A stretch of 64,000 nucleotides of DNA, from IMG/VR virus record IMGVR_UViG_3300045988_142892, one strand, 5' to 3'. The stretch comes from a virus. Below are positions 36,731 through 38,867 of the stretch, in pieces (positions within the stretch are counted from its first letter, which is position 1; every line of letters begins with the position of its first letter). The notes beneath the pieces were generated by a model. The model saw only the letters and a list, made by a program, of their open reading frames with translations. It searched no databases and was not told the DNA's origin. Made by a program: the position numbers and the translations under genes.

Positions 36731-37125
36731 CTGATGAAGCTGTAAATCAAGCTAAAAATGATACATATGAAATTAGAGAGCGAATTCCTATCGCTCTTTG
36801 GGATAAAGTAAGCGAAGATTTAACACGAGATCAATGTTATTCTTATTGGCAGTATTGCCTTGAATGTGTCCAACAGATGGCTGACGCTTGGGAAGAAGTC
36901 AATGGTAAAAATCTTATTTGGGTTCCGGGCCATTATGAAAAGAAAGAAGAATCCAAGAGCAAAAATGTTCCAATTACTGAAGTAATCAAGAAATGTGAAT
37001 GTTATCATTTAAGAGATGATAAAACCGCGGAATGTTGGGGCACTAAGGAACGCGAAATTTGCTCTTGCGGTGGCGATTCAAGATTTTGTAATTTCTACTA
37101 TAACGGAGATAAAATCAGTGGTTAA
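36727..37125 (+). CDS. Cys-rich hypothetical protein (132 aa)
   Basis: C-terminal CECYH...CWG...CSCGGDSRFC. Confidence 0.4.
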   Translation: MTDEAVNQAKNDTYEIRERIPIALWDKVSEDLTRDQCYSYWQYCLECVQQMADAWEEVNGKNLIWVPGHYEKKEESKSKNVPITEVIKKCECYHLRDDKTAECWGTKEREICSCGGDSRFCNFYYNGDKISG

Positions 37126-37615
37126 AAATCTTACTTATTATAAAAATAAAAGCCTATTAGATTTACCTCCTGAAATTGTAATTTGTCATCAGGTGAATTG
37201 TCAAGGCGTTATGGGTGCGGGTCTTGCCAAACAAATTCGTATTCGTTGGCCTGAAGTCTATGCAGATTATAAAAAAACTATTGAAAATGCGGAAGCACAA
37301 GTCGCAGGACTAGAAAATCCACCTGATGATATTTTACTTGGCGCAGTTGCTTGCACTACTACCGTAGATGGTTATAGAGTAGCAAGTTTATTCGCTCAAT
37401 ATGATTATGGATATGGCCCGTGTAGATACACTAATTATGAAGCATTTGCTAGCTGTTTAGAAAATTTAAATAAATTAGTTCCTAGCTATGTTCCGATTGC
37501 TTTTCCTTATAAAATTGGGTGTGGTCTTGGTGGAGGAGACTGGGATATTATTCAATTAATGATTAAAAAAATTCTCCATCACGAAGATGTTTATATCTGT
37601 CAGTTGGAGGATTGA
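37118..37615 (+). CDS. Macro-domain protein (ADP-ribose-binding or ADP-ribosyl hydrolase)
   Basis: ICHQVNCQGVMGAGLAKQI matches the macro-domain N..N..G.MGAGiA signature; GTG start at 37118 directly after the upstream stop, RBS ggagataaaatcagtg. Confidence 0.55.
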   Translation: MVKNLTYYKNKSLLDLPPEIVICHQVNCQGVMGAGLAKQIRIRWPEVYADYKKTIENAEAQVAGLENPPDDILLGAVACTTTVDGYRVASLFAQYDYGYGPCRYTNYEAFASCLENLNKLVPSYVPIAFPYKIGCGLGGGDWDIIQLMIKKILHHEDVYICQLED

Positions 37616-37616
37616 A

Positions 37617-38123
37617 ATGAGCGTTGTCGCAGCTAAAGTTTATGATGATAGAATTGTAATGAGTGCTGATAGTATTCTTACTAATGGCTATGAAAAGGAA
37701 CCTAATGTTAATTTTGCTAAAATTGCTAAGATTAACGATATGATTCTTGGCGGAGTTGGTTATGGCGATGAACAAAGTTTAATGTGGCTTTACATGGAGA
37801 ATCATCAGCCAGTTGAAGCTAATGAACGAGAAATTCTTAATTACATTATTGAATTTTCAAAATGGAAAAATACTCTTATCGGTGATGGATTCCTAAAAAA
37901 TGAATTTCTTATTGCTTATAAAGGGCATCTTTTCCATATTTGTAAGTTTATGGTAAGAGAGATCAAAGACTATTTTGCTATTGGAGCGGGCGCTCCTTAT
38001 GCAACAACCGCACTATACTTGAAACATGATCCAGAAGAGTCAGTAAAAGTAGCGTGTGATATTTGTTGTTTTGTAAGTGAACCAATCAAAACTTTTATTC
38101 AAGAAAAAGGAGATAAGAAGTAA
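37617..38123 (+). CDS. Proteasome-beta / HslV-like Ntn-hydrolase family protein
   Basis: N-terminal MSVVAAKVYDDRIVMSADS resembles the HslV/20S-beta N-terminus TTIVAVKyngGVViAADS (Ser in place of the Thr1 nucleophile); RBS ggaggattgaaatg. Confidence 0.45.
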   Translation: MSVVAAKVYDDRIVMSADSILTNGYEKEPNVNFAKIAKINDMILGGVGYGDEQSLMWLYMENHQPVEANEREILNYIIEFSKWKNTLIGDGFLKNEFLIAYKGHLFHICKFMVREIKDYFAIGAGAPYATTALYLKHDPEESVKVACDICCFVSEPIKTFIQEKGDKK

Positions 38124-38137
38124 TTCTTATCTCCTTT

Positions 38138-38166
38138 TTGATTTTTTTAAAAAATTATTATATAAT
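38138..38166 (+). promoter_or_regulatory. Conserved phage promoter, sigma70-like
   Basis: ttgatt at 38138-38143, 17-nt spacer, tataat at 38161-38166. Confidence 0.5.
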
Positions 38167-38195
38167 ATTTATATAAGAAGAAAGGTGATATTATT

Positions 38196-38423
38196 ATGAA
38201 TTATATCGTTTCTAAAGAAAGACTTCTTGAACTTCTTAAAGCTGAAAATGAGCTTAATGTTCTTGAAGGGGACGGTGTCGATAACTGGACATGGTATATG
38301 GAAGGCCGCAGACAATATCTTAAAGAAGGCGCTGAAATATATGGCGTTAATATTGATGACAATGAAGATTTTGATTTTGAAGATTTAGCCGAATTGGCTC
38401 TTCAGGACTTTGAGGAGTTTTAA
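38196..38423 (+). CDS. Small acidic hypothetical protein (75 aa)
   Basis: RBS aagaaaggtgatattattatg. Confidence 0.4.
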   Translation: MNYIVSKERLLELLKAENELNVLEGDGVDNWTWYMEGRRQYLKEGAEIYGVNIDDNEDFDFEDLAELALQDFEEF

Positions 38424-38867
38424 ATGATTGATAAATTTGAAGGAGATTATGCTTTTTTAAGCAACTTTTTCTATTCTCCAATTACAATAGAAGGAAAAAG
38501 ATATCTTACGGTAGAAAACTATTTTCAGGCAATGAAAGCAGTAAACCCTGGAGACGCAGAAGAAATTAGACTTGCTCCTACTCCTGGCAAATCTAAGAGA
38601 TTAGGAAGACATTGTGTAATTCGTAAAGACTGGGAAGACATTAAAGAAGATGTTATGTATAAAGGCGTAAAAGCTAAATTTATGCAAAACCCAACTTTGC
38701 GGACTGCCCTTGAAAAAACCGGAGAAGCTTGGCTTGAAGAAGGAAATACTTGGCATGATAATACATGGGGTGTATGTCATTGTATTAAGTGTCAAAACAA
38801 AATGGCATATAATAAACTTGGAAAAATTCTAATGCGAGTAAGAAAAGAATTAAAAGAGGAAAATTAA
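38424..38867 (+). CDS. NADAR (YbiA-like / DUF1768) domain protein
   Basis: FEGDYAFLSNFFYSPI...TVENYFQAMKA matches the NADAR N-terminal FLSNF and EhYfQA signatures. Confidence 0.55.
   Translation: MIDKFEGDYAFLSNFFYSPITIEGKRYLTVENYFQAMKAVNPGDAEEIRLAPTPGKSKRLGRHCVIRKDWEDIKEDVMYKGVKAKFMQNPTLRTALEKTGEAWLEEGNTWHDNTWGVCHCIKCQNKMAYNKLGKILMRVRKELKEEN

Follow-up and report, generated by a model that had tools for sequence, protein, structure and literature searches.

A Macro-domain protein and a NADAR protein as candidate DNA de-ADP-ribosylation enzymes in a large phage with apparent TAG recoding

Introduction

The IMG/VR virus record IMGVR_UViG_3300045988_142892 includes a stretch of 64,000 nt (the window, by which the whole of this stretch is meant) from a phage genome of roughly 160-200 kb, and this window encodes a Macro-domain protein (37118-37615) and a NADAR protein (38424-38867) on either side of an HslV-like hydrolase. 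It is proposed that the Macro and NADAR proteins shield replicating phage DNA against DarT-kind host toxins, which are ADP-ribosyltransferases (ARTs), by removing ADP-ribose (ADPr). This proposal is given about an even chance of being right, since every experimentally tested close relative of the two proteins acts on DNA adducts in this way. Phage AdfN, the two forms of phage AdfM, the co-occurrence of Macro and NADAR and the presence of both enzymes in T4 are already published; what is new here is a candidate AdfN/AdfM-like pair in a distant phage lineage that is probably TAG-recoded.

The window has a GC content of about 33%, carries essentially all of its genes on the + strand and includes replication, tail and lysis genes of phage type, and its region 35000-41200 has no match among deposited phages by megablast. 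Protein families were scanned with Pfam and PHROG over about 50 open reading frames (ORFs) of the window and with NCBIfam and PADLOC on selected proteins, and the gene contexts of homologues were taken from IMG/VR and metagenome contigs. A preliminary description of the locus had named three ORFs, those of the Macro, HslV-like and NADAR proteins, all of which exist on the + strand with the boundaries used here.

The Macro-domain protein

The gene of the Macro-domain protein starts with a GTG codon, shares 8 nt with the stop end of the gene before it and has GGAG 10 nt upstream; the protein sequence includes ICHQVNCQGVMGAGLAKQI. It matches the Pfam Macro family (PF01661) with E = 1.1e-3 (19.4 bits, under the 22-bit cut-off) and phrog_335 with 3.9e-39, and PF01661 is found in many of its homologues, which occur at 45-50% identity in Clostridia, Bacillus and metagenomes. 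Searched against the PDB, a profile built from 38 family members retrieves BT1257 (2e-18), Mycobacterium tuberculosis DarG (4e-16), SCO6735 (2e-13), Thermus aquaticus DarG (3e-13), Poa1p (2.5e-12, spanning the N-terminal two thirds of the protein only) and TARG1 (4e-10). The AlphaFold2 (AF2) model has a predicted local distance difference test (pLDDT) value of 94, and with it Foldseek retrieves BT1257, Poa1p, DarG, TARG1 and SCO6735 at template modelling (TM) scores of 0.7-0.83. The profile and model matches together place the protein in the ALC1-like class, which includes DarG. DarG is also its only match in PADLOC (1.6e-13) and in NCBIfam (6.7e-12), where the model reaches 45 bits against a cut-off of 250 with the N-terminal part alone covered.

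The key positions of the protein are H24, N27, Q94 and the G134-W142 loop. N27, within HQVNCQG, aligns with the active-site Asn22 of DarG (VN(T/C)VG), and Gln94 aligns with the catalytic Lys80 of DarG (T. aquaticus numbering) and is Gln in at least 90% of the 38 aligned family sequences. In our own alignment of the loop, made with what we take to be the Poa1p loop sequence, H24 corresponds to Poa1p H23 and V31 falls at the S30 position; the role of the Poa1p residues H23, S30 and F152 is taken from PDB entry titles only. With respect to SCO6735, the mobile loop has no clear equivalent in the alignment of Lys89, a DNA-positioning residue. The protein is 165 amino acids (aa) long and forms a single domain that lacks a C-terminal DarT-binding domain, and no darT is adjacent to its gene, whose neighbours are o36727 and the HslV-like gene. 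Its earlier designation as a DarG-type macrodomain thus stands as far as the ALC1-like fold and the retained Asn22 are concerned, but not with regard to Lys80, replaced by Gln94, and the missing DarT-binding domain.

SCO6735 surpasses DarG in the efficiency with which it removes thymidine-linked ADPr from DNA, and it also rescues cells from DarT; it has no activity on ADPr linked to a 5'-phosphate. Its Gln85 is essential, the Q85A and Q85E variants being dead. In T4 the knockout of tk.4 makes the phage sensitive to DarTG2, and the gene has been named adfM (bioRxiv 10.1101/2025.11.20.689424). The window protein is accordingly classed as a Gln-type macrodomain of the SCO6735/Tk.4 type, and the best-supported substrate is thymidine-linked ADPr on DNA, which would make it a candidate DNA glycohydrolase of the AdfM/SCO6735 kind.

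Inactivity of the Macro protein for want of the catalytic Lys was considered and rejected, as the Gln is nearly invariant, is found in T4 Tk.4 and is essential in SCO6735. Frameshifts of the Macro gene in close relatives (L009/L032 and L021/L033) are of +1 or -1 and fall in the same A7 tract, GATTATAAAAAAACT, equivalent to about position 37270 of the window; they could stem from assembly error or from genuine slippage or loss.

The NADAR protein

The NADAR protein matches PF08719 at 2.8e-28 (99.6 bits against a cut-off of 35.1) and contains both of the motifs quoted for it in the preliminary description, FLSNF and ENYFQAMKA. The closest solved structure is that of Escherichia coli YbiA (2e-20; 40% identity), behind which comes the DarT1-linked NADAR of Geobacter (PDB 8BAU, 1.4e-8). 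The catalytic set consists of E31, K38 and E106, plus D112 and W115. E31 and K38 lie in TVENYFQAMK, are invariant in an alignment of NADARs and correspond to E36 and K43 of T4 AdfN, while E106 (LEEGNTWHD) aligns with LVE-HTEND of YbiA and LIEGNTWGD of Bas32 and corresponds to E125 of P. nicotianae. Guanine de-ADP-ribosylation by the E. coli C7 NADAR depends on E88, K95 and D171, and the third catalytic position is occupied by Glu in members of the YbiA subfamily and by His in the NADARs of T4-like phages (Schuller et al.). The combination of E31, K38 and E106 therefore marks the protein as a NADAR of the YbiA type.

All NADAR subtypes tested in vitro hydrolyse guanine-linked ADPr (G-ADPr). In E. 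coli, AdfN-Bas32, the NADAR of Bas32 that was identified here via bas32_ locus tags, neutralises DarT1; on hosts with DarTG1 it restores the phages RB69, T5 and Bas25, but it does not restore T5 against DarTG2 (Johannesman et al. 2025). The window NADAR, near whose gene no ART is found, is a candidate G-ADPr glycohydrolase of the AdfN kind. For both proteins, then, the folds that had been assigned to them earlier are borne out by domain and profile searches and, in the case of Macro, by the AF2 model, with the key residues in place.

After the WG motif the window NADAR contains a CxCxxC insert (C118, C120 and C123; residues 118-123, window 38775-38792), which the L074 and Phass-1 NADARs also have and which YbiA, AdfN-Bas32 and T4 AdfN lack.

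Organisation of the locus

Six + strand genes lie between 36.7 and 39.1 kb. These genes, the RNA ligase gene upstream and the predicted signals around them are as follows.

34749..34777, + strand: promoter-like site TTGATT-N17-TATAAT, opening the unit o34811 - RNA ligase - o36539 - o36727 - Macro - HslV-like
35173..36552, + strand: RNA ligase (phrog_968, 4.6e-64; NCBIfam RNA_lig_DRB0094, 8e-11)
36727..37125, + strand: 132-aa protein with a Cys-rich C-terminus, its stop overlapping the Macro start; ratio of nonsynonymous to synonymous substitution rates (dN/dS) 0.08-0.18
37118..37615, + strand: Macro-domain protein, 165 aa, ALC1-like class, Gln type
37617..38123, + strand: HslV/BPH-like N-terminal nucleophile (Ntn) hydrolase, 168 aa
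38104..38139, + strand: terminator-like hairpin with a 16 bp stem and a T tract, at the end of the HslV-like gene and abutting the next promoter motif
38138..38166, + strand: promoter-like site, opening the unit gp5.9-like - NADAR - small membrane protein
38196..38423, + strand: gp5.9-like protein, 75 aa, acidic
38424..38867, + strand: NADAR protein, 147 aa, YbiA-type
38868..39065, + strand: small hydrophobic Cys-rich protein, 65 aa, starting right after the NADAR stop; last gene of the NADAR unit
39052..39078, + strand: terminator-like hairpin, with the next promoter motif (39076-39104) after it

The extended motif TTGATT-N17-TATAAT-ATxTATATAA is present in the window in 11 copies on the + strand (at 6677, 23886, 26640, 28475, 31096, 34749, 38138, 39076, 40156, 53188 and 56779) and in none on the - strand. 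Copies are often placed directly after a hairpin terminator, and the hairpins at 38104-38139 and 39052-39078 each abut one. Together with the terminators, the gene spacers of 0-1 nt and the Shine-Dalgarno sequences at the locus, these motifs predict four transcription units. The first would run from o34811 through RNA ligase, o36539, o36727 and Macro to the HslV-like gene; the second would hold the gp5.9-like, NADAR and small membrane protein genes, which follow each other without spacers (0 nt) and are flanked by a promoter motif and a terminator; the third a metallophosphatase and o39868; and the fourth o40219, a Zn-finger gene, a polynucleotide kinase (PNK) and a phosphoesterase. What had been presented as one cluster is therefore divided by terminator and promoter motifs into two transcription units, and the interval 38124-38423, where the earlier gene list was incomplete, holds a terminator, a promoter and the 75-aa gp5.9-like gene.

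The gp5.9-like protein matches PF25708, the family of the T7 gp5.9 RecBCD inhibitor, at 2e-8 (34.5 against 24.5 bits) and phrog_6234 at 3.6e-11, and contains 21 D/E and 6 K/R residues. It resembles, and is putatively, a RecBCD inhibitor. Co-transcription of NADAR with a gene of this sort fits a role in the protection of DNA, the two belonging to what may be a small DNA-protection operon.

Gene order is the same in 12 close IMG/VR relatives (113-197 kb where long, along with fragments of 11.7 kb and 65 kb). The HslV-like gene has the lowest pairwise dN/dS against these relatives (0.01-0.04), and the values of the Macro (0.08-0.17), gp5.9-like (0.05-0.2) and NADAR (0.07-0.21) genes are somewhat higher; with values of 0.01-0.21 all four are functional genes under purifying selection. 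The 132-aa protein has no match in Pfam, PHROG, PADLOC or NCBIfam. The RNA ligase has weak matches to Pfam RNA_ligase and to the PHA02142 OB domain, and its gene adjoins the HslV-like gene in several diverged relatives.

Two mobile insertions distinguish some of the relatives. L003, L006, L009 and L017 have about 820 bp inserted between NADAR and the small membrane gene, carrying a minus-strand ORF for a Cys-rich protein of 154 aa. L011, L017 and L021 have about 600 bp inserted at the junction of the Zn-finger and PNK genes, with a 128-aa ORF bearing an HNH motif, and this insertion separates the first 20 or so kinase codons from the remainder of the gene.

The HslV-like hydrolase

The HslV-like protein matches Pfam Proteasome (PF00227) at 5.6e-3 (16.8 bits against a cut-off of 22.4) and phrog_1040 at 4e-19, and the profile of its family matches HslV in the PDB at 7e-4. 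The AF2 model (pLDDT 90.9) retrieves BPH in Foldseek (2e-11, TM 0.80), then HslV and 20S beta subunits. Across 39 homologues, averaging about 50% identity, M1-S2-V3, D18, K35 and G48 are invariant: S2, which is Ser1 after removal of Met, is equivalent to the Ntn nucleophile, and D18, K35 and G48 to Asp17, Lys33 and Gly47. The position of Ser129 (GSG) is taken by Ala in the sequence AIGAG, of which I122, G123 and G125 are invariant and A124 nearly so. Relatives have in-frame stops shortly before the start codon, which fix its position, and the Ser after Met1 does not vary, so the earlier claim of a Ser in place of Thr1 is correct; with dN/dS at 0.01-0.04, this position is very strongly constrained. 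Bacillus CodW is a precedent for an HslV with Ser1.

The gene starts 1 nt past the Macro stop, shares the Shine-Dalgarno region with it and is translationally coupled. No HslU-like AAA+ ATPase is found near it, in the scanned window ORFs or in the relatives examined. The protein has no tblastn match in 50,697 deposited phage genomes, and its family occurs in large phage-sized metagenomic contigs of up to about 190 kb. HslV-like genes of 66-68% identity follow RlaP-metallophosphoesterase or RNA ligase, with Macro and NADAR absent from about 6 kb of each flank or lying 3.4-5 kb off, and those of 45-56% identity adjoin genes for RNA ligase, RNase T, nucleoside deoxyribosyltransferase, Thg1, the major vault protein (MVP) or NAD salvage. 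The linkage to Macro and NADAR is lineage-specific, and in the window the gene is predicted to be co-transcribed with RNA ligase and Macro.

By default the protein is read as a stand-alone peptidase that would compartmentalise itself. That it is a self-compartmentalised counter-defence protease which destroys, for example, host toxins or effectors such as ARTs and anticodon nucleases is unlikely; if it were, its coupling to Macro and the recurrent RNA ligase and NAD-salvage neighbours would reflect this role. The family is an uncharacterised phage protease candidate and the least understood element of the locus.

Neighbourhood and diverged relatives

The genes between 26.9 and 41.7 kb suggest a region of RNA repair and host takeover; they encode a DUF2828/DUF7788 protein, an MVP-shoulder protein, RlaP, three metallophosphoesterases, an RNA ligase and a Pnkp-like kinase. 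At 26889-31040 an 832-aa protein with the MVP shoulder and repeat domains comes after the DUF2828/DUF7788 protein (phrog_850, 'RNA-binding protein'), and this pair lies just upstream of RlaP - metallophosphoesterase - RNA ligase; in L059/L060 an MVP-shoulder protein adjoins the HslV-like gene. At 32676-36552 and 39137-41684 the RNA-repair-like set takes the form of separate genes, namely those for an RlaP nucleotidyltransferase, a metallophosphoesterase, the RNA ligase, a NinI-like metallophosphatase, the Pnkp-like kinase, whose TTG start overlaps the Zn-finger gene, and a YfcE-like phosphoesterase. The Pfam and PHROG scans found no KptA/Tpt1, ART or NAD-salvage gene among the scanned window ORFs.

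Linkage of Macro and NADAR recurs in the diverged lineages L013/14, L073-76 and L046. The order in L073-76 is NAMPT - Macro - NadE - NADAR - ... - NMNAT - metallophosphatase - Zn-finger - PNK - phosphoesterase (3126-8008 in L074), and in L057 it is NAMPT - Macro - NAD synthase (9309-12072). L046, an unrelated viral contig of 94 kb, encodes at 4051-6916 a 499-aa PARP-like protein, then a 162-aa ORF and then an adjacent Macro-NADAR pair; the H-Y-E-like PARP motifs of the 499-aa protein were read by eye, and NCBIfam gave no support for them. In DNA viruses Macro and NADAR co-occur more often than expected by chance, and the viral genes lie among early host-manipulation, RNA-repair and NAD-salvage genes (Iyer et al. 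2022).

Further genes with a possible part in host interaction are noted for completeness. They encode an SPFH/Band-7 protein and a PhoH-like ATPase (41986-43371 and 44286-45548) and, at 24729-26625 if TAG is translated, a methyltransferase-like protein that has an NPPF motif, beside a GmrSD_N/DUF262-like ORF.

TAG recoding

TAG appears to be a sense codon in this phage. A transfer RNA (tRNA) gene with the anticodon CUA is located at 7729-7801, among 21 tRNA genes, and with TAG translated as Gln the stretch 45611-46912, which has nine TAGs in frame, encodes a Phage_lysozyme2 + Amidase_2 protein in full. The same reading fuses other split ORFs, including NAGPA+SPOR, GmrSD_N, GIY-YIG and a fibre-like protein of 1029 aa, and further regions that bear on recoding are 5017-5904, 8984-10507, 13781-16870, 25606-26625 and 55031-56050. 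Phass-1, the nearest named phage that bears a NADAR, is classified in the "code 15 clade". The genes of the Macro-NADAR locus contain no TAG codons and end in TAA or TGA. That recoding might alter their gene models was considered and rejected, given these stops and the end-to-end match of the genes to their homologues.

Proposed role and alternative explanations

The proposed mechanism would place the locus in an early, TAG-free region of a large TAG-recoded phage, from which two independent ADP-ribosyl glycohydrolases would guard the replicating phage DNA against toxins of the DarT kind. Macro would bind the ADPr that thymine carries in single-stranded DNA and set it free, the distal ribose being held in position by Gln94 and Asn27, and NADAR would cleave the N-glycosidic link between ADPr and the guanine amino group via Glu31, Lys38 and Glu106. 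The HslV/BPH-like Ser1 hydrolase would be a separate, strongly conserved phage peptidase. The folds, residues, family membership, synteny, purifying selection and promoter and terminator motifs come directly from the analyses; we infer the substrates (thymidine- and guanine-linked ADPr on DNA), the host system that is countered and the early timing of expression. The counter-defence function against DarTG in the preliminary description thus has support for Macro and NADAR, both of which belong to PHROGs of proven anti-DarTG proteins, but not for the HslV-like protein, which looks unrelated to the two.

Several observations weigh against this proposal. Macro is only 26% identical to Tk.4, from which it also differs in phage group and genomic position, and the mechanism of Tk.4 is itself inferred. 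The position of Lys34 in SCO6735, a residue that matters for DNA binding, is taken by Ala in the Macro protein (GVMGAG), and two of the 12 close relatives have a frameshifted Macro gene. With respect to NADAR, E. coli YbiA and T4 NADAR cleave G-ADPr in vitro and do not protect cells from DarT1; the window protein lacks both the catalytic Asp of DarG1 and an N-terminal DNA-binding extension, as it begins 10 residues before FLSNF; and it scores 100.8 bits against 73.7 on TIGR02464, the NCBIfam model for a riboflavin-intermediate N-glycosidase. Moreover, Macro and NADAR sit within RNA-repair genes in the window, and their orthologues at 42-56% identity are interleaved with NAMPT, NadE and NMNAT.

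These contexts, RNA repair here and NAD salvage in relatives, leave room for substrates other than those of DarT. The main rival, on account of the NAD-salvage contexts and the work of Iyer et al. (2022), is a role in the economy of nicotinamide adenine dinucleotide (NAD+) and ADPr, where Macro and NADAR would act on soluble derivatives (signals of the cyclic ADPr type, ADPr-1''-phosphate, O-acetyl-ADPr or NAD-derived toxins), either to quench signals or to recycle ADPr beside phage NAD+ reconstitution, rather than repair DNA. Soluble ADPr derivatives are the substrates that Iyer et al. (2022) favour, arguing from contexts and co-occurrence, and NAMPT, NadE or NMNAT are indeed neighbours in L073, L074-76 and L057, the Phass-1 NADAR lies about 8 kb from NAMPT, and the Macro profile matches Poa1p, an ADPr-1''-phosphate phosphatase. 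However, the scanned window ORFs include no NAD-salvage gene, genes that serve against NAD-based conflicts may merely cluster, and the tested homologues (AdfN of T4, Bas32 and Bas60, Tk.4, SCO6735 and the NADAR subtypes) act on adducts of nucleic-acid bases, so that this role is considered possible but on balance improbable. A role directed at RNA, in which ADP-ribosylation of RNA is reversed (of guanosine by NADAR and of ends by Macro) or by-products of the KptA/Tpt1 type are cleared, has already been proposed in the literature, including by Iyer et al. (2022). It would suit the predicted transcription unit that Macro shares with the RNA ligase, the surrounding RlaP, three metallophosphoesterases, PNK and RNA ligase, and the ability of NADARs to reverse guanosine ADP-ribosylation on RNA and of some macrodomains to remove ADPr from phosphate ends. 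It is nevertheless rated as unlikely: KptA/Tpt1 and ARTs are absent from the scanned window ORFs, a route by kinase, metallophosphoesterase and ligase would leave no 2'-phosphate that needs NAD+, SCO6735 is inactive on 5'-phosphate ADPr and NADARs on phosphate ends, and NADAR belongs to the other unit, beside the RecBCD inhibitor-like gene.

The remaining alternatives carry little weight beside the protection of DNA from DarT-kind toxins. Macro and NADAR could limit or reverse modifications made by an ART of the phage itself, as might be suggested by the PARP-like 499-aa protein two genes upstream of the pair in L046 and by the location of the T4 NADAR near alt. No ART is detected in the 64-kb window, which is part of a genome of about 160-200 kb and in which fast-evolving ARTs can escape Pfam, and this reading is very unlikely. 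The TIGR02464 score and the 40% identity to YbiA would also accord with a YbiA-like N-glycosidase that destroys reactive intermediates of the riboflavin pathway, but there are no riboflavin genes nearby, YbiA itself cleaves G-ADPr, AdfN-Bas32 scores 66 bits on the same model, and the context is a phage operon with a RecBCD inhibitor-like gene; such a function is highly improbable. Just as improbable is a single counter-defence module of Macro, HslV-like protein and NADAR, as the preliminary description had it. The three genes are adjacent, Macro and the HslV-like gene are translationally coupled and the arrangement is kept in the 12 close relatives, but HslV-like genes occur without adjoining Macro or NADAR at 66-68% identity and among other genes at 45-56%, synteny of Macro and NADAR is found elsewhere without the HslV-like gene, and a terminator and a promoter separate the HslV-like gene from NADAR.

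If Macro and NADAR do guard phage DNA, both arms of DarTG counter-defence, the Macro for thymine and the NADAR for guanine, would extend to TAG-recoded, probably gut-associated large phages, a lineage remote from the models in E. coli and Pseudomonas. This would be the second natural case, after T4, of one phage with both enzymes, and would suggest that it is the Gln-type macrodomain, not the Lys-type DarG fold, that phages other than T4 use. The mixed contexts of RNA repair here and NAD salvage in relatives would in addition offer a test bed for nucleic-acid adducts versus soluble ADPr derivatives as substrates.

Comparison with known systems

The HslV-like protein has in common with BPH and HslV the Ntn fold, the N-terminal nucleophile and the Asp17/Lys33 equivalents, and differs from HslV and the proteasome beta subunits in having Ser and Ala where these have the Thr nucleophile and Ser129. 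T7 gp5.9 is small and highly acidic, as is the 75-aa protein of the window, but is about 52 aa long, and the alignment is limited to residues 5-36.

For Macro the best profile and structure match is BT1257 (PDB 2AFC/2FG1; 2e-18, TM 0.78-0.83). The DarG macrodomains of T. aquaticus and M. tuberculosis share with the Macro protein the ALC1-like fold and the Asn22 equivalent, whereas Lys80 of DarG, like K78 of PhiKZ gp104 AdfM, is replaced by Gln. PhiKZ AdfM is a separate, Lys-type DarG-like protein, unlike the window Macro. SCO6735 of Streptomyces coelicolor (PDB 5E3B) has H24, N27, the essential Gln (Q85, equivalent to Q94) and the GCGLxGGxW loop in common with Macro, and differs in Lys34, which is Ala in Macro, in the mobile loop and in being a cellular, DNA-damage-regulated enzyme rather than a phage gene product. 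T4 Tk.4 (AdfM) falls into phrog_335 (1.3e-65), as does Macro, and the two are matched by BLASTP at 4e-10 and by hhalign with a probability of 99%. Both are single-domain proteins of about 155-165 aa with the motifs H-x-x-N-C, N-x-[FY]-x-Q and IG-x-G-x-G-x-W, and Tk.4 likewise has Gln at the position of DarG Lys80.

The window NADAR shares its fold and S13-N14, E31, Q35 and K38 with T4 AdfN (gp30.3), E. coli YbiA and the DarG1 NADAR. T4 AdfN is 22% identical to it and has His (LKH) in place of Glu106, and the DarT1-linked NADARs of the DarG1 and BC4488 subfamily have a catalytic Asp of the Asp171 type and an N-terminal DNA-binding extension. AdfN-Bas32 (bas32_0066, phage IrisVonRoten) comes from a T5-like phage with nucleotide metabolism neighbours, unlike the window in both family and neighbourhood, but is 44% identical over its full length (E = 6e-37) and belongs with the window NADAR to phrog_1017; the two have the same E/K/E set, the LxEGNTWxDxxWGVC motif and a stand-alone form of about 148 aa.

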